A DNA stretch of 64,000 nucleotides from Escherichia phage JES2013. The notes below the pieces were generated by a model. That model was not told where the DNA came from and made no database searches. It saw nothing but the letters and a program-made list of their open reading frames with translations. Of this stretch, positions 27,992 through 41,295 are shown in pieces. The position numbers and the translations under genes are program-made. Position 1 is the stretch's first letter. Every line of letters starts with the position of its first letter. The stretch lies in sequence record KC690136, one strand, 5' to 3'.

Positions 27992-28225
27992 ATGAAAGTT
28001 AAATTTCTTACAGATTTAGGGTACCCTTCCTTGGTTGACTGCGTTGGTAAAATTGTGGAAGCAAAACGACTATCTGCAAACGATAATGTTGTCATGGTTA
28101 AGGGAAAAGATTTACTATCTGCAGGTGCAGAGTCTGGCAGGATCTCTCCTGACTATACGTATTACCTGTCTTTAAGTAATCTACCAGAACGAGGCGGCAA
28201 AGGCCTTGAAGTTGTGGAGGAGTGA
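27992..28225 (+). CDS. Small acidic protein, paralog family A
   Basis: MKVKFLTDLGYP...VKGKDLLSAGAESG...GLEVVEE; shares motifs with 31616, 31827, 33709, 33950 ORFs. Confidence 0.5.
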   Translation: MKVKFLTDLGYPSLVDCVGKIVEAKRLSANDNVVMVKGKDLLSAGAESGRISPDYTYYLSLSNLPERGGKGLEVVEE

Positions 28226-31337: not shown

Positions 31338-31619
31338 ATGAAAAAGATTTGCGATACAGATGTGGAGTTCAAGGTGTGTAGTAAGGAGACCTATTGGGAA
31401 GTGAGACAAAAGGTATATTTGTTTGGACTTATCCCATATTGGTCTAAATTCTACTGGGGAGCAGATGAATTAGGGAGATATGCCACCAAAGCTATGGCGC
31501 TTATAGGTATAGCTGAATATATTGCTGCTAGGGACAGGGCTGGAAAAACCTGCTACTACACTGCTGACGAGATTCGTAACAGTGTTTACGTCCCCCAACC
31601 ACCTGAAGGAGACCGTTGA
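31338..31619 (+). CDS. Hypothetical protein
   Basis: 93-aa ORF. Confidence 0.5.
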   Translation: MKKICDTDVEFKVCSKETYWEVRQKVYLFGLIPYWSKFYWGADELGRYATKAMALIGIAEYIAARDRAGKTCYYTADEIRNSVYVPQPPEGDR

Positions 31620-31843
31620 TGAAAGTTAAAGTTTTAGATTCAAGCTTCTATATTGGTCAGGAGCCTTTAGTGGGTAAAGTGTTTACCGCTGTCCCTAACG
31701 AAGATTATCCTGATCTTTTAAAAATAAAGGGCGCAGATCTTATTGCCGCTGGTGCATCTCAGGACTGCTTTGACAGCCAGTGGACCTACAACTTTGCCCT
31801 AGGTGAGGATGTAGAGATAGTGGAGGATGATCATGAAGGTTAA
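31616..31843 (+). CDS. Small acidic protein, paralog family A
   Basis: MMKVKVLDSSFYIGQEPLVGKV...IKGADLIAAGASQD. Confidence 0.5.
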   Translation: MMKVKVLDSSFYIGQEPLVGKVFTAVPNEDYPDLLKIKGADLIAAGASQDCFDSQWTYNFALGEDVEIVEDDHEG

Positions 31844-32087
31844 AATTCTTGACTCTAACGTCTACTTGGGGCAATCCTTCCTGAAAGGAAAGGTCATCCC
31901 TGCGGTATACTTTGAAGGGTTGCCGTGGGATGATCCTGTGCGGCAACATCACAGTTATGTAGGCCACAACGTGGTGTTTATCTTAGGATCAGACCTGATC
32001 ACCGCTGGTGCACCTGAATATTATTTCGGGGAAGAGTCCTATTATGCCTTTGGGGTAGGGTCAGATGCAGATATTGTAGAGCTGTGA
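31827..32087 (+). CDS. Small acidic protein, paralog family A
   Basis: MKVKILDSNVYLGQSFLKGKV...ILGSDLITAGAPEY; tandem to 31616 ORF. Confidence 0.5.
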   Translation: MIMKVKILDSNVYLGQSFLKGKVIPAVYFEGLPWDDPVRQHHSYVGHNVVFILGSDLITAGAPEYYFGEESYYAFGVGSDADIVEL

Positions 32088-32099
32088 TGGGTAACCGTT

Positions 32100-32498
32100 G
32101 TGAAAAATAAACTGTTCAAAGTTACAATGAAAATTCGCGGAGCTTGGAGCGTAAAGCAAGGGCGTATCCCAGAATTTGAGAAAGATTTCTACGTAGTCTC
32201 CACCTCGGAGGAGGCTGCATGCTGGCAGGCTGGCTATGCCTATGCAAGAACCTGGTACGAAGGATACCAGACTGGGGGCTATGACGGAGAAATTATCAGC
32301 AAGGGTGTAGAAGAAATTAATGTGTTGACAAGTGAAAAAGTTTTTGTTATAGTGCATCCAGATTCCAGAGTGAAGCATTACTGGAATGCCAGAACAAAAA
32401 CTTGGACACCGTTTGCAGATTCTGCTACGCCACTTTTAAACCAGAAAGCTCTTGACTCTGCCCCAAGTTATGGGGTTGTTGAAGAAAAGCTAAACTGA
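32100..32498 (+). CDS. Hypothetical protein, paralog family B
   Basis: HPDSRVKHYWNARTKTWTP parallels HPHSNIAYYWDVLNNEWTP in 34309 ORF. Confidence 0.5.
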   Translation: MKNKLFKVTMKIRGAWSVKQGRIPEFEKDFYVVSTSEEAACWQAGYAYARTWYEGYQTGGYDGEIISKGVEEINVLTSEKVFVIVHPDSRVKHYWNARTKTWTPFADSATPLLNQKALDSAPSYGVVEEKLN

Positions 32499-32515
32499 AA
32501 CAGTGAGGTGTCACC

Positions 32516-32806
32516 ATGATGGATTTAATTCTAAATATTGATAACGCAGAAGAATTTAAAGACGATGGTGTAACAAGCATGGGCAAACCATGCTCTGCTA
32601 AGGTTGACTCAAAATGGACCTACAAGTTTGACGGAGAGATCTTCGCAAATGATGAGAAGGTTGTAGATGCTGCAGCCATTTTAAACGCTCTAGGGTACGA
32701 CCCTGTGAATTCTTTGATCAAGGATCCTGTTGAGTTTGCAGAGTATGTTCGAAAAATGGCAGATCTTGCTGTGGATATTTTAAAAACTATCGACAACAAG
32801 CTGTAA
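32516..32806 (+). CDS. Hypothetical protein
   Basis: 96-aa acidic ORF. Confidence 0.5.
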   Translation: MMDLILNIDNAEEFKDDGVTSMGKPCSAKVDSKWTYKFDGEIFANDEKVVDAAAILNALGYDPVNSLIKDPVEFAEYVRKMADLAVDILKTIDNKL

Positions 32807-32812
32807 AAACTG

Positions 32813-32841
32813 TTGACACAACGCTTCAGATTTAGTATCAT
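32813..32841 (+). promoter_or_regulatory. Sigma70-like promoter TTGACA-N17-TATCAT
   Basis: Consensus -35, 17-nt spacer; about 50 nt upstream of the hibernation factor gene. Confidence 0.55.
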
Positions 32842-32888
32842 TGTTTTCAAAGAGGGTTTGGTTCCCTCTTCTTTAAAAGGAACATGTT

Positions 32889-33206
32889 GTGCAAATTGAA
32901 ATCACTGGCAACGTAGAGATCACTGAAGGTATGGTGTCTTTCATTTCCCACAAAATGTCTAAGCTGGAGCGTTTGCACCCCTCTGCCAACTATGCACGTG
33001 TGAGTGTAAAAGTTGAAAATGATCACCAGGAAGTCATGGCGTTCATTTTTGACACTTCCGGAAAAGAAGTTATTGCCAAAGCTAAAGGCAGTAACGCTTA
33101 CGAGGCAACTGACCGTATGGTAGATGTTGCAGCACGTCAGTTGGCTAAATGCGGTGGAAAGAAAGGTAAAGGGAAAGGCAAAGTAAAGATTGACTTTGGA
33201 GAATGA
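32889..33206 (+). CDS. hpf: Ribosome hibernation promoting factor / RaiA (YfiA) family protein
   Basis: MQIEITGNVEITEGM...KLE...VSVKVE...AKAKGSNAYEATDRMVDVAARQL parallels E. coli HPF MQLNITGNNVEITEAL...; GTG start; lysine/glycine-rich tail. Confidence 0.8.
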   Translation: MQIEITGNVEITEGMVSFISHKMSKLERLHPSANYARVSVKVENDHQEVMAFIFDTSGKEVIAKAKGSNAYEATDRMVDVAARQLAKCGGKKGKGKGKVKIDFGE

Positions 33207-33215
33207 GGTGCTACA

Positions 33216-33317
33216 ATGGGCGTGATTAAGAAATTAGTCCCAAATGTAGAGATTGCATGCTTTGAAATTATGTTTGCAATCGCAGTTGTAGTTAATGTGT
33301 TAGGTTACGGCTATTAA
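33216..33317 (+). CDS. Small membrane peptide (33 aa)
   Basis: sORF MGVIKKLVPNVEIACFEIMFAIAVVVNVLGYGY; GGTG SD 5 nt upstream; just after hpf. Confidence 0.3.
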   Translation: MGVIKKLVPNVEIACFEIMFAIAVVVNVLGYGY

Positions 33318-33343
33318 TATCAAATAATTGAGGAGACCTCTAA

Positions 33344-33613
33344 ATGAAAATTAAATTATTCAAAACTGAGCTGGCAGACAAAAACTGTGGACTGGTTGAA
33401 GGCATGATCGTTGAAGCACAACCAGTGGACTACATGAAGGTAGTTCGTGATGCCTTGGGTGAAGGCTTTGATCTGATGGAGCCAGCTCTGCGAGAAGATG
33501 TTATCGAGATGGCTAAAAAGCACACACCTGAAGGCTTGGTGGTGTTTGTTGCACCGGGTAACGGAGAAGAGTTGATTGTAACTCCTGATGTGTATGAGAT
33601 TGTAGAAGAGTAA
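33344..33613 (+). CDS. Small acidic protein (possible diverged family A member)
   Basis: MKIKLFKTELADKNCGLVEGMIVEA...YEIVEE; acidic C-terminal YE[IV]VEE tail. Confidence 0.5.
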   Translation: MKIKLFKTELADKNCGLVEGMIVEAQPVDYMKVVRDALGEGFDLMEPALREDVIEMAKKHTPEGLVVFVAPGNGEELIVTPDVYEIVEE

Positions 33614-33708
33614 TCCTGCTCGGATTAGCATACTTCTCTCAATAAAAAGAAAAGTTTGTAATTATTTGTGGGAAAGGAATCCCCATCTCTTGCCAGAGGT
33701 GATACTAT

Positions 33709-33972
33709 ATGATTGTTTATTTTAAAACTTCAGGTGGATACCCTGATTCTCAAAGCTTGATCGGAAAAACGTGCACAGCATACTCACCTCTTGATGAGGA
33801 GGTAAGCGATATTCTACGAGATATGTATCGGATTGATCCCCAAAAAGCTTTTGATCAAAACCTTGTATTTGTCAAGGGCTCAGACATGAAGTCTTTGGGA
33901 GCATTCCCTGAAGCAGATGATGATGCCGTTTATTCGTTCATGACTCCTTTTGAAGCTATGGTTGTTGGGTGA
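33709..33972 (+). CDS. Small acidic protein, paralog family A
   Basis: GYPDSQSLIGKTCTA...VKGSDMKSLGAFPE. Confidence 0.5.
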   Translation: MIVYFKTSGGYPDSQSLIGKTCTAYSPLDEEVSDILRDMYRIDPQKAFDQNLVFVKGSDMKSLGAFPEADDDAVYSFMTPFEAMVVG

Positions 33973-34309
33973 GAATATGAAAGTACGATTTATTGGTGAA
34001 ACAATTCCTGTGCATCTCCGGTCGCCTGAAGATTCTGCAGATCTTGCATCTCAGAAGGCGAGAGGTTATGATAAGAAAGTAATCTCAAACGCTGTAGAAC
34101 TTGAGGCTACTAGTTTACCTGACCCTGCCGCATTCTTTAATCATTATGGATACTATTTCAGCAATCTGATGAATATCGGTGAGCTTGTGTTTATTAGTGG
34201 TGGAGAAATTGTTAGCAAGCTTGGCGGCGATCCGGATGTCTTTCATGAAACCTGTCCTTTTGCATTTGTGGTAGGTTCAGATGTGGAAGTTATTGAGGAG
34301 GTGCGGTAA
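33950..34309 (+). CDS. Small acidic protein, paralog family A-like
   Basis: FISGGEIVSKLGGDPD...VEVIEEVR; probable true start at internal MKVRFIG. Confidence 0.5.
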   Translation: MKLWLLGENMKVRFIGETIPVHLRSPEDSADLASQKARGYDKKVISNAVELEATSLPDPAAFFNHYGYYFSNLMNIGELVFISGGEIVSKLGGDPDVFHETCPFAFVVGSDVEVIEEVR

Positions 34310-34704
34310 TGGTAAGACTATACCGTGTTGAGTATAGCTCAGATACTGTATACAACGTAAGAAGCAAAGATCGCAGCGACAGAGTGCAAGAAATGTATGT
34401 TCTTGCCGACAGTCCGTTATCTGCAGCGTTCAAGGCAGGGTCTCTTGCATCTCGTTGGAAATTTGAAGGTGGATCTTTCTATGAAGAAACCCTTGAAGAT
34501 TCTGTTGTTATTTCTTCTGCAGAGGTTTCAGATGACTACGAAGGGAAAAAGTTCGTAATGCGGCACCCACACAGCAACATTGCGTACTACTGGGATGTTC
34601 TGAACAACGAGTGGACCCCAGATCTTCAGAAGGCCACTGTGCTAACACCGTTTTTGGCAGATAAGTTTCCACCAGAAGGTAATTTATCCGCACTGTTTCA
34701 GTAA
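34309..34704 (+). CDS. Hypothetical protein, paralog family B
   Basis: Shares HP.S...YW......WTP motif with 32100 ORF. Confidence 0.5.
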   Translation: MVRLYRVEYSSDTVYNVRSKDRSDRVQEMYVLADSPLSAAFKAGSLASRWKFEGGSFYEETLEDSVVISSAEVSDDYEGKKFVMRHPHSNIAYYWDVLNNEWTPDLQKATVLTPFLADKFPPEGNLSALFQ

Positions 34705-34722
34705 TTTTCTTGCACACAGGTG

Positions 34723-34751
34723 TTGACAACGCCAACCCTGTGTGAAATAAT
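34723..34751 (+). promoter_or_regulatory. Sigma70-like promoter TTGACA-N17-AATAAT within palindrome CACAGG...CCTGTG
   Basis: Consensus -35; inverted repeat spans the -35 and spacer. Confidence 0.5.
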
Positions 34752-34780
34752 ACCTTCATCTTAACAAGACAGGAGACCGA

Positions 34781-35041
34781 TTGATGAAGATTAAATTGAA
34801 AAACCTTGAAACGGCAGAGATTCAGGACGGTGTGGATTTCCGTTCTAAAGATGGTGACATCTTAGAGGTAAATATTCCAACCTACGAGCTGATCAAAGGT
34901 TTTGGCAACGTCCCCGAGGAAGGTATCGCAGACGTTCTTATAATGTTAATCGTTAGTGGGACAGTGTTCTTGGGGGAAGGTGAGAACGCTATTGCAATCC
35001 CAAGCCATTTTTATGAAGTAGTTGACGAAGAGGCGCTGTAA
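34781..35041 (+). CDS. Small acidic protein
   Basis: MMKIKLKNLETAEI...FYEVVDEEAL. Confidence 0.5.
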   Translation: MMKIKLKNLETAEIQDGVDFRSKDGDILEVNIPTYELIKGFGNVPEEGIADVLIMLIVSGTVFLGEGENAIAIPSHFYEVVDEEAL

Positions 35042-35392
35042 ATGAAAGTAGAAATTACTGGTTTTGATGTGAATGTGGTTCCGGAAGATATTTTAGCTAA
35101 ACTCCCGGAAGGTTTTGGTAACGGTGTTGTGGTGGATGCTGTTCCTCCTACCAAAGACATTCTGCTGCAGTATGGTGTAGCAGAGGAAGATGTTGATAAA
35201 GTTCTTACAATGATGGCAATCGATCGTGTTGTCGTTGTTAAAGGTCTCGATAATTTTGAGAGTGATCCTCTGATTATTCGTGGAGATGACTACAAAATCA
35301 TCGATAATGAAGGCCAAGAGTTCTATGAGCCTTGTGCAGAAGATATTCTTAACTTATTACTGGAAGCAGGCACCGAAGAGGAGGACGAATAA
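35042..35392 (+). CDS. Small acidic protein
   Basis: MKVEITGFDVNVVPED...; acidic C-terminus. Confidence 0.5.
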   Translation: MKVEITGFDVNVVPEDILAKLPEGFGNGVVVDAVPPTKDILLQYGVAEEDVDKVLTMMAIDRVVVVKGLDNFESDPLIIRGDDYKIIDNEGQEFYEPCAEDILNLLLEAGTEEEDE

Positions 35393-35721
35393 TGAAGATT
35401 GACCCGTTACTGAAGGCTCGTGCAGAAAAAGCGTACACCATTAAGCTGACCAACCTGGTTCCTACTTGTCATCCAGATGTAGGTTGGCCCGAAGGTTTGG
35501 TGGAGGGAACTGTAACAGCTGCATACCTTCCTAACATCAAATACCTCATGGAGATCTTAGAGATGGATGAGGAAACTGCAGAACAGTTCCAGTTGGATAT
35601 GAAACAGAGTGGGACTCTGGTTATTCACGGGTGGTATAATACTAAAGATGCAGAAGACCCTCTGGTAACTTCTAATCTGGCATATGAAATCTTAGGGCCT
35701 TTGAACCTGGAGGAAGACTAA
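35392..35721 (+). CDS. Small acidic protein
   Basis: 109-aa ORF, overlapping start/stop with neighbours. Confidence 0.5.
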   Translation: MKIDPLLKARAEKAYTIKLTNLVPTCHPDVGWPEGLVEGTVTAAYLPNIKYLMEILEMDEETAEQFQLDMKQSGTLVIHGWYNTKDAEDPLVTSNLAYEILGPLNLEED

Positions 35722-38702: not shown

Positions 38703-39541
38703 CACACAATTAGCTGCCCGGCTAAAGTGCTGGAAGCACCTATAACACATCTTTCAACTAAATTTCCCACCACAACAATCACTTACCTCCCATACATGAC
38801 TGTTTGCTTGTTTAGTGAGCAGTCATGCCTTGACATTCTTGCCTATCCTGATAAAATTAAGTTCTTCTCTTTTCTTTTACCGAGTAATTCGGGTTTTCTG
38901 TTCTCTTCGGTTTGAAGGGGTATGGAGATACACCTGAGTGAACAGGGTGAACAACCGAACATTTGGCTATGGCATTAGCATGGCGAAGCGGACGGGTGAC
39001 GAAAGAGGGGCCGGAGGACACCAGTCACTGCCATATGGTATATGGGTGATAACCTGAAGAGTCTGAATAAGTGTTTAAGTACCAGTCAGAGGAAAAGGTG
39101 AATGGTAGCCGAAGGGGGAGGGGGGTTTCTTGTATCTTTAATTTGTATATTATGTATACACTTGTAAACCAATCTCATTTGAATTTGTTTACCACACAAA
39201 GTGGATAGAGACAAATATTACCTATTAAACTTGAATTATTTATAGAAAATACCACAACACTACTTAAGTCTTTGATTTTACACACAAATCCTGCAGATAT
39301 TCACCCTCCATATTTAACATACTTGTAACATATTCCATACTCTACCTGCCCGATCAATTCACCCAACTACATCCCCATATTTTCCCTGTCTGTACTACCC
39401 CTGCCCCGCCGGGAGTCCCGTCATATCTGGCTTTCCAGCAAATATCACACCCACAAATATCATTGCCTGAAGAGGGTTTCGTCCCATAATACATGCCTTA
39501 CCTGAAGAGCGCTTCATATACCCCGTAAATTTTTTAATTGA

Positions 39542-39574
39542 CCCCCTCCCCGCCGCCGGAGGGGTCGGCTTTTC
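39542..39574 (+). terminator. Terminator-like hairpin CCCCTCC-ccgccgcc-GGAGGGG + TCGGCTTTT
   Basis: GC-rich stem followed by T tract in gene-free region. Confidence 0.5.
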
Positions 39575-40120
39575 CCACACAGACCTGAAGAGTCAGCCAG
39601 AAATATCTGAATGGACCCAATTCTGCCCTGTTATGAGCCGTAGCGACTGGAGTGCTGCCAGGCGGACGAAATGGGAATACTTCTCATTCTTATAACAATT
39701 CTCAAATATCGAGGCAGTGAGGCAAATTAATAGGTAAGGCCGTTCACATAGTGGCACAACATTTGCAGTCTATCTGATGTGGTTGAATGAGAATACCTAT
39801 CATTGTGAGAATAGTTATCATTACGGGCAATTTAACATAATACCCATTATGCGCACCACTGGCGATACATACAGGGATTGATAACATGAGTTACTGTTTA
39901 CGCATATAACAATTATATTTCTTATCATTTGTGTGGGATATAGTTAGCAGCCGATAGATTAGATATTGACCTGCGGACTTCTGACCGTCTAGACGTCTAA
40001 ACGCCCACACAACAAGGCTTATACATACATCGCTGAATGTAAACATGGCCGCAAAAATGCTACCATACAAGATTGTAAATTTTTCATGCAGCACTTGACA
40101 AAGAGGAGAAAAACTTGTCT

Positions 40121-40162
40121 GACACTTTAGACATACTGGTGACACAATATGACACTTTAGAC
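40121..40162. repeat. Direct repeat GACACTTTAGAC (two copies, 30 bp apart), followed by iterated TGTTTAC/TGTTCAC motifs to about 40360
   Basis: Exact 12-mers at 40121 and 40151; at least eight (A)CTGTTTAC-like motifs in the next 200 bp. Confidence 0.55.
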
Positions 40163-40449
40163 TTAATTGACATGCCTGACTGTTTACGCTGTCACTATTC
40201 GCGCTATTACTATTCACTCCCTTTACTGTTCACGCTCTTACTGTTTACATGCTTAATGGTTTACATGCTTAATAGACTGCATGTCTAATAGTTTACATAG
40301 CTAACTGTTCACATACTTATCATTTACATGATTGACTGTTTACACAGAGATGATAAGCCATGACATTCGTTTGCATGACAATAATTAACAAGATAACAAT
40401 TGACAAGCTAACAGCCAACAAGCTGACAATTAACTTGTTTACAATAGAT

Positions 40450-40615
40450 GACATAATATAAAAGCAGGGCAACTATTAGAAGATCTATAGTTGCCTTGCT
40501 TGTTATGTCATGATTAACTAAATACAAGGCAACTATGATCTGATTAATAGTTTGCAAACAAACTATCACGGGGGTGATGGTTACTGCTTTTATATTATGT
40601 CGCGACTCCGTCGCG
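40450..40615. repeat. Nested inverted repeats: 18-bp arms GACATAATATAAAAGCAG / CTGCTTTTATATTATGTC around palindrome GGCAACTAT-N10-ATAGTTGCC, plus CGCGAC-tcc-GTCGCG
   Basis: Arms at 40450-40467 and 40584-40601 are exact reverse complements; inner palindrome 40468-40495; GGCAACTAT also recurs at about 40517 and 40634. Confidence 0.6.
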
Positions 40616-41295
40616 CCATGCCATTCGTTTGCATAGTTGCCTTATTGTTACAGATAAAATAATTGTATTGTTAATTATTTCTTATCTTTCTATTAGTCAT
40701 CTAATGATTCCAGTCAATATAGTAATGTACAGTAAACATTAGACGACTAAAGATTTATCTGCTTATAATAACTTACCGTGACAATTTCGGACTGTTTACG
40801 AAAAATGTTGGCACCTAAGCTGATTTATGTTATGCAGTTTACACGAATAATTATTTTATGCAGGTATTGACTATTCCATTATTCTATGGTTGGAATAAAT
40901 ACTTAGCAGACTATAGAATGGTGAGCGTACGTAAATTCTGAGATCTGGCGGCTATAGTTATACTCGATTTTTCACGTAGAGCACGCTTTTGTGGTTATGT
41001 AAGTGTATGACTTATAAAGATTTTTAGTTGTTGACAAGACACTGAAGATATGCATCAGGTTAAATTTTGTGCAATAGCTGCATTACGTGCAATTTTGGAA
41101 GGAAAAACGGGTAAAAATAGCCCTGCTACCACACAATGAAAAGTTATGCAATAGTTATTTTACATGTATATTTGTACAGTGTGTGGGGTTGATGGCTCGT
41201 CAATTATTCCACTTGCCAGGTAGGGCCGTTTATGGTAGGGGGAAGATCAGACAAAAAGAAAGGGGCCTAAGCCCCTTGATAATTCAGTTAAAAAA

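Follow-up and report, generated by a model that had tools for sequence, protein, structure and literature searches.

The hpf locus of phage JES2013

The window analyzed here, a 64,000-nucleotide stretch of DNA from Escherichia phage JES2013 (record KC690136), contains a gene of the ribosome hibernation promoting factor (HPF) family, hpf, within a same-strand run of small open reading frames (ORFs). The features of the locus are listed in Table 1. Because an in-frame TAA stands five codons 5' of GTG 32889, this GTG is the sole possible in-frame start, and the product begins with MQIEITGN, compared with MQLNITGN in E. coli HPF. The start codon (32889-32891) is GTG in the JES2013 allele and ATG in six of six rV5-like relatives as well as in a sister lineage described below. 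The ribosome-binding sequence AAAAGGA is unchanged in all six relatives, and the JES2013 allele carries the N56T and D69N substitutions compared with rV5.

Table 1. Features of the hpf locus, numbered from the first nucleotide of the window
Feature	Position	Strand	Description
Sigma-70-type promoter-like site	32813-32841	+	TTGACA-17 nt-TATCAT; consensus scan, 11/12
Hairpin	32850-32870	+	AAGAGGG-TTTGGTT-CCCTCTT; perfect 7-bp stem, 7-nt loop; read from sequence
Shine-Dalgarno-like AAGGA	32877-32881	+	7 nt before GTG; read from sequence
hpf ORF	32889-33206	+	105 aa, GTG start; read from sequence
HPF core domain	32889-33158	+	Residues 1-90; PF02482, AlphaFold2, Foldseek
Lys/Gly-rich tail (KKGKGKGKVKIDFGE)	33159-33203	+	Residues 91-105, predicted disordered
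Stop codon TGA	33204-33206	+	

A sequence-only reading of this DNA had given the gene its own consensus promoter. The site is indeed present, but it agrees with the consensus at 11 of 12 positions and is not perfect. This site is also annotated in the rV5 RefSeq record (NC_011041) as 'Sigma70-type promoter; P144', and Kropinski et al. (2013, PMC3606486) described rV5 as having 33 promoters of the sigma-70 type and 88 mostly small ORFs in a block, hpf among them. Among six relatives, the -35 hexamer was invariant, the -10 hexamer was either TATCAT or TATTAT, and the spacer was variable; the -35 hexamer was also present in the sister lineage (L002), whose HPF is 63% identical. Promoter-like sites in the region showed no excess over shuffled sequence (12 found vs 11.5 expected). 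Thus, the case for the predicted promoter rests on its conservation and on the quality of the match.

Located after the predicted promoter and ahead of the hpf ribosome-binding site, the hairpin would form the extreme 5' end of the transcript if this promoter fires. In rV5-like phages most of its stem is retained, two of them having a single mismatch. The hairpin is missing from the L002 lineage, whose GAGGG ribosome-binding site aligns with the 5' arm. We rejected the hairpin as a significant structure, since its stability was not unusual against shuffled sequence (z=0.45; 133 of 200 shuffles folded equally well) and no compensatory changes were seen.

A Pfam scan of the 33 neighboring ORFs gave no informative hits, with one weak methylase-like match and no match to RMF or another translation factor. 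No tRNA genes were found within the window, and rpoN and ptsN are absent from the hpf gene block. Two paralogous families, both without a Pfam match, flank hpf: four acidic proteins of ~75-120 aa (27992-28222, 31616-31840, 31827-32084 and 33950-34306; pairwise BLASTP E-values from 2e-4 to 6e-15), and a pair of ~131 aa (32100-32495 and 34309-34701; 28% identity, E=2e-10). The order of these genes suggests that a module was tandemly duplicated on both sides of hpf. A 33-codon ORF (33216-33317; MGVIKKLVPNVEIACFEIMFAIAVVVNVLGYGY) with a hydrophobic C-terminal half begins 10 nt past the hpf stop, and its GAGGTG overlaps this stop. Phage records carry it as a hypothetical gene (ORF 145 in rV5), and the sister lineage has no gene call at the corresponding place. 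Farther downstream, the stretch ~39200-41100 is ORF-poor, with gaps of 907 and 799 nt that hold no + strand ORF of at least 45 aa; by its offset from hpf, it corresponds to the rV5 'non-coding' region 104013-106618 (PMC3606486).

The identification of this gene as an HPF-family member is already known, as the gene has long been annotated and was described in print in 2019. Over 4 kb (positions 31500-35500), the window shows 100% identity with Escherichia coli O157 typing phage 4 (KP869102.1), a member of Vequintavirus (the rV5-like myoviruses), in which gene ECTP4_00611 is annotated as 'hpf: ribosome hibernation promoting factor'. The HPF of rV5, FV3, FFH2, 2 JES-2013 and O157 typing phage 14 was listed by Mizuno et al. 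(2019, Nat Commun, PMC6375957), and the gene was also mentioned by Mathieu et al. (2020). Names vary among records and include sigma 54 modulation factor, RaiA, ribosome hibernation factor, hypothetical protein and 'ATP-dependent protease La'. The 'sigma-54 modulation' name stems from the position of bacterial hpf next to rpoN and is not known to reflect a demonstrated activity, and 'ATP-dependent protease La type I', found in several public records, is a wrong name for hpf.

Family membership and predicted fold

The product of the ORF is almost certainly a member of the HPF/RaiA (S30AE) family. First, profile searches gave significant matches above the curated cut-offs: Pfam PF02482 (Ribosomal_S30AE) matched residues 3-88 (E=7e-12; 46.4 bits vs a gathering cut-off of 23.7), and the NCBIfam HPF/YfiA family model TIGR00741 scored 45.1 bits (cut-off 40.9). 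Second, BLASTP against E. coli HPF aligned the two proteins from residue 1, with 37 identities in 92 positions (40%, E=1e-16). The motifs that the sequence-only reading had aligned by eye are real, the resemblance goes far beyond chance, and its claim of an HPF/RaiA homologue is borne out by both family models and by the identity to E. coli HPF. Third, a phmmer search of PDB sequences placed E. coli HPF (2RQL, 6H4N) at the top (E ~4e-11, residues 1-89), and E. coli RaiA was not among the PDB matches. The more specific equivalog models scored far below their cut-offs, with 53.2 bits (cut-off 125) for gammaproteobacterial short HPF (NF007780) and 16.3 bits (cut-off 158) for RaiA/YfiA (NF007654). 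Judging by these NCBIfam scores (53 vs 16 bits), the phage protein is nearer to HPF than to RaiA.

Structure prediction likewise gave an HPF fold. In the AlphaFold2 model, built from a 12-sequence alignment (pLDDT 82), the core blocks had pLDDT values of 79-93, and the predicted elements were beta1 (residues 2-7), alpha1 (13-29), beta2 (33-42), beta3 (47-55), beta4 (60-67) and alpha2 (70-90). The best 37 Foldseek matches in the PDB were all HPF, RaiA or protein Y structures, with TM scores of 0.92 for V. cholerae HPF and 0.90 for E. coli HPF (rmsd 1.2 A for both). The homology claim thus survived the two refutations named along with the sequence-only reading, a missing profile match and a deviating fold. 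Within the HPF/RaiA family, the phage protein is a diverged representative of the short-HPF branch.

Distribution, origin and selection

Orthologues are present in related phage genomes, namely in 117 phage records of the phage genome collection (at least 90% protein identity) and in the sister lineage. The rV5 protein (ABI79209) is 98% identical to JES2013 HPF. When this collection was queried with the phage protein, only Vequintavirus records and host-like sequences were returned. The same collection queried with E. coli HPF yielded 128 records, of which ~117 were the Vequintavirus set and the remainder were a few unrelated ones, among them Xanthomonas phage XaC1 and short contigs. A scan of IMG/VR for phage-clade relatives of greater divergence recovered only two close copies, and a word-indexed homologue search with the single protein recovered close phage copies only. 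Eighteen 'Campylobacter phage' records, of which the one inspected (A141) is marked UNVERIFIED, are classed as Vequintavirus and are ~95-97% identical to E. coli phages, so that their host label is doubtful.

The sister lineage, which is absent from the phage genome collection searched, was represented by an orthologue (P0004) with 63% identity on phage-sized contigs of ~125-137 kb from metagenomes and read-set assemblies. Its gene occupies a colinear, syntenic position among homologous small genes, and hpf is therefore older than the split of the two lineages. The loci concerned (L002-L005; Logan/ENA contigs of 16-125 kb) represent a Vequintavirus-like lineage that seems to be undescribed and is colinear with the window.

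When 1.84 billion representative proteins were searched exhaustively with phmmer, only 12 hits at E<=1e-3 were obtained, owing to the size of the library. The nearest cellular homologue was an enterobacterial-type HPF (P0007) with ~42% identity. Since no cellular homologue was closer than this, the 'relatively recent' transfer of phage HPF inferred by Mizuno et al. in 2019 (PMC6375957) is unsupported and, as far as sequence divergence indicates, hpf is not a recent capture from cells. The second-best phmmer match (P0006, 1160 aa) was rejected as an HPF relative and regarded as a chance or compositional match; it is a repeat protein whose 'DVDLYLYDESGNEISRS' units match query residues 35-81 nine times.

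Pairwise Nei-Gojobori analysis of full-length rV5-like alleles gave dN/dS values of 0.03-0.07 with dS up to 0.72, and in the comparison with the sister lineage synonymous sites were saturated while 63% of residues were kept. The gene is under strong purifying selection and is functional, and it is vertically inherited in rV5-like Vequintavirus phages.

A remodeled ribosome-contact surface and a basic tail

The phage protein, E. coli HPF and 119 short HPFs from cells were aligned, and we examined the residues listed as ribosome contacts in recent cryo-EM work (bioRxiv 10.1101/2025.10.07.680626). Contact residues K22, K25, R28, E43, D75, R83, K87 and K91/92 are kept and are invariant between both phage lineages; among them, R83 contacts m4C1402 (bioRxiv 10.1101/2025.10.07.680626). 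The beta1 strand, which touches the ribosome in HPF according to the same work, is nearly identical in the phage protein (MQIEITGNVEITEGM). In the basic track of alpha2 (K80, R83, K87, K89 and K91), R83, K87 and K91/92 are present and two lysines are replaced: K80 (a lysine in 117 of the 119 cellular sequences) by V, or T in the sister lineage, and K89 (K in 116 of 119) by G. On beta3, T53 and H55, at the m2G966 platform and the uS9 contact, are both changed to F, the exposed aromatics F52 and F54 of the phage protein standing in for them, and H/Y30 is changed to L. Near-invariant alpha2 positions M70, A72, I74, L81 and D82 are also altered.

Altogether, only 19 of 31 near-invariant family columns are kept; among cellular sequences, the median is 31 and the 5th percentile 24. 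Most of the substitutions are common to both phage lineages and therefore represent a selected signature of the clade. Contact positions showed no preferential conservation between the phage lineages (~12 of 19 vs a background of 62%). The phage protein has a pI of 9.0, compared with 6.5 for E. coli HPF.

The Lys/Gly tail (GGKKGKGKGKVK) is real. Residues 91-105 had pLDDT values below 50 in the AlphaFold2 model, and residues 89-105 carry a net charge of +4. Its description in the sequence-only reading as unlike the bacterial proteins held up, in that the Lys/Gly run, (GK)x3, was absent from all 124 other short HPF-family proteins compared. The amino-acid sequence of the tail is preserved across relatives through synonymous changes. 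In phage APECc02, the tail is frameshifted, still basic, and the product has 101 aa; thus, the tail is not essential in every isolate. The FV3 tail ends in IDFWD, and that of the sister lineage is KYSKSKGIDKRTAKWDY. The variants share a basic stretch that leads into an aromatic-acidic end (IDFGE, IDFWD or WDY). The extra tail lysines may compensate for the lost K80 and K89.

Possible roles of the phage protein

The only experiments on this protein that we found in the literature searched are those of 2019, with no later functional study of an rV5-type HPF. Mizuno et al. proposed that viral HPF might compete with cellular HPF and prevent dimers (PMC6375957). When rV5 HPF was expressed in E. coli, its peptides were detected in the crude extract and not in the 70S and 100S fractions isolated at high salt, and the level of 100S was unchanged (PMC6375957). 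The authors, who noted that the test had used high-salt washing and exponentially growing cells, offered growth phase, a true loss of binding and dissociation during the salt wash as candidate reasons, and treated the ribosome-fraction result as inconclusive (PMC6375957).

The model that we tentatively favor, as a leading candidate that still falls a little short of probable, is that the phage protein occupies the HPF/RaiA site of idle ribosomes weakly and in a salt-sensitive manner, and acts as a RaiA-like competitor. It would dock in the HPF/RaiA pocket of vacant 30S or 70S particles (A/P-site channel, head-body) through a core interface that would be weakened, electrostatically dominated and salt-sensitive, the weakening being attributed to the replacement of K80, K89, T53, H55 and H/Y30. 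The flexible polycationic tail, extending from the C-terminal end of alpha2, would supplement binding; by analogy, it may depart where RaiA's C-terminal tail does and take its path on the ribosome from there. The RaiA tail inhibits RMF binding (PMC7764885). If the analogy extends to function, idle ribosomes would be held as readily reactivated 70S monomers and not as 100S dimers, the phage protein would compete with host RMF, HPF and RaiA, and the ribosome pool would stay intact for phage mRNAs in starved or stressed hosts. The retained contact residues, the nearly unchanged beta1 strand and the basic character of the protein and its tail speak for such docking. A weak and salt-sensitive interface would explain why the protein was present in the lysate and absent from high-salt-washed ribosomes (Mizuno et al., PMC6375957). 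However, the lack of rV5 HPF in 70S and 100S fractions and the unchanged 100S level would be expected just as much if ribosome binding had truly been lost, and the alignment provides evidence against this model, in that five strongly conserved contact positions, including K80 and K89, are gone. The low count of near-invariant columns kept, the contact positions being no better conserved between the phage lineages than the remaining residues, and the frameshifted APECc02 tail also weigh against it.

A bolder proposal, which we place somewhat on the unlikely side, is that the rV5-type HPF has turned into an anti-hibernation or ribosome-protecting factor, or else has left the ribosome for a new RNA or protein target. 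In the first case, it would occupy the HPF/RaiA/RMF region transiently by means of its remodeled surface and polycationic tail. Were this true, host factors and ribosome-targeting defense would be kept from parking or damaging ribosomes, and phage replication could become possible in stationary-phase gut E. coli.

It is also conceivable, but unlikely, that the HPF fold has been fully neofunctionalized, so that the protein would stay off the decoding channel and bind some other RNA or protein (mRNA, tRNA, or a host defense or stress factor), the new binding being provided by the remodeled beta-sheet/alpha2 surface together with the basic tail. The absence from washed ribosomes and the unaffected 100S level (PMC6375957) would fit this idea, as would the loss of K80, K89, T53, H55, H/Y30, D82, M70, A72, I74 and L81, mostly in both phage lineages, and the exposed F52 and F54 on beta3; in addition, the conserved aromatic-acidic end of the tail (IDFGE, IDFWD or WDY) could be a short docking motif. 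Yet the protein keeps eight residues of the canonical contacts as well as the beta1 strand, the closest structures are all ribosome-bound hibernation factors, and the published negative came from exponential cells after a high-salt wash. Nor was an alternative partner indicated by the 33 neighboring ORFs, which gave no informative Pfam hit.

The sequence-only reading took the gene to suggest direct manipulation of host translation, and this is still only a suggestion. As a canonical hibernation promoter, the protein would inactivate host ribosomes or dimerize them to 100S as a weapon of host takeover. We consider this role improbable. Family membership and fold are in its favor, the best match is the 100S-promoting short HPF and not RaiA, and a sigma-70 promoter fits expression by unmodified host RNA polymerase. 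However, a ribosome occupied by an HPF-type factor has its A and P sites blocked (bioRxiv 10.1101/2025.10.07.680626), and since this would apply to any ribosome, phage translation would be silenced as well. Moreover, 100S formation in E. coli requires RMF (PMC7764885), for which the 33 neighboring ORFs gave no Pfam match; the 100S and 70S profiles were unchanged on expression in E. coli (PMC6375957); and the key basic contacts K80 and K89 are lost.

Finally, it is hardly credible that hpf is a decaying passenger without function or a 'sigma-54 modulation factor': although the protein is diverged from cellular HPFs, one isolate (APECc02) has a frameshifted tail and the legacy name persists in many records, dN/dS is 0.03-0.07 with dS up to 0.72, the gene is intact in 117 records and in a sister lineage with saturated synonymous sites, and rpoN and ptsN are absent from the gene block.

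Phage genes that touch the ribosome directly are rare. In the phage genome collection searched, 128 records carried an HPF-family gene of any kind, and ~117 of them came from rV5-like phages. Such phages have been isolated widely and are discussed in the literature as candidates for therapy and biocontrol, and the function of hpf therefore has practical relevance. If hpf keeps ribosomes usable in starved or stationary hosts, as the favored model of a weak competitor would have it, this would help to explain growth on slow-growing gut E. coli, and the protein would offer a natural tool to probe ribosome hibernation. Our results add a concrete candidate explanation of the published negative binding result and a set of testable differences from host HPF, namely K80V, K89G, the beta3 aromatics and the Lys/Gly tail.

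Comparison with known hibernation factors

The short HPF of E. coli (YhbH; PDB 2RQL, 6H4N and 6Y69) is the best match of the phage protein in sequence and structure (40% over 92 residues; TM 0.90). Equivalents of its K23, K26, E44, D75, R83, K87 and K91 are retained, whereas K80V, K89G, T53F, H55F and Y30L (H in most other short HPFs), together with D82A, M70A, A72E, I74T and L81A, distinguish the phage protein. The E. coli protein ends in KDKLKQH and the phage protein in the Lys/Gly-rich tail, and E. coli hpf belongs to the rpoN operon whereas phage hpf lies in a block of small genes. In contrast with E. coli HPF, the rV5 protein was not found on ribosomes washed at high salt and left 100S unaffected (PMC6375957). 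The long HPF of Gram-positive bacteria shares the fold of its N-terminal domain with the phage protein, which is without the C-terminal dimerization domain.

HPF-family (S30AE) domains are also found in the large myovirus genomes of Cronobacter phage GAP32 and Xanthomonas phage XaC1 (PHROG 8990). JES2013 hpf belongs to phrog_12469 (E=6e-70) and matches phrog_8990 weakly (E=2e-5), and the XaC1 gene was missed by tblastn with the phage protein but found with E. coli HPF. The assignment to different PHROGs and the detection of XaC1 only by the E. coli query mark these genes as independent acquisitions.

With RaiA (YfiA, protein Y) of E. coli, the phage protein shares the fold and a C-terminal extension past alpha2. 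In RefSeq the phage gene is called 'RaiA', a label used generically for the family, and the match to RaiA is weak (16 bits vs 158); the disordered 15-residue phage tail is shorter than that of RaiA and unrelated to it in sequence. The RaiA tail favors inactive 70S monomers over 100S (PMC7764885), and it is this property for which we propose a functional analogy in the phage protein.
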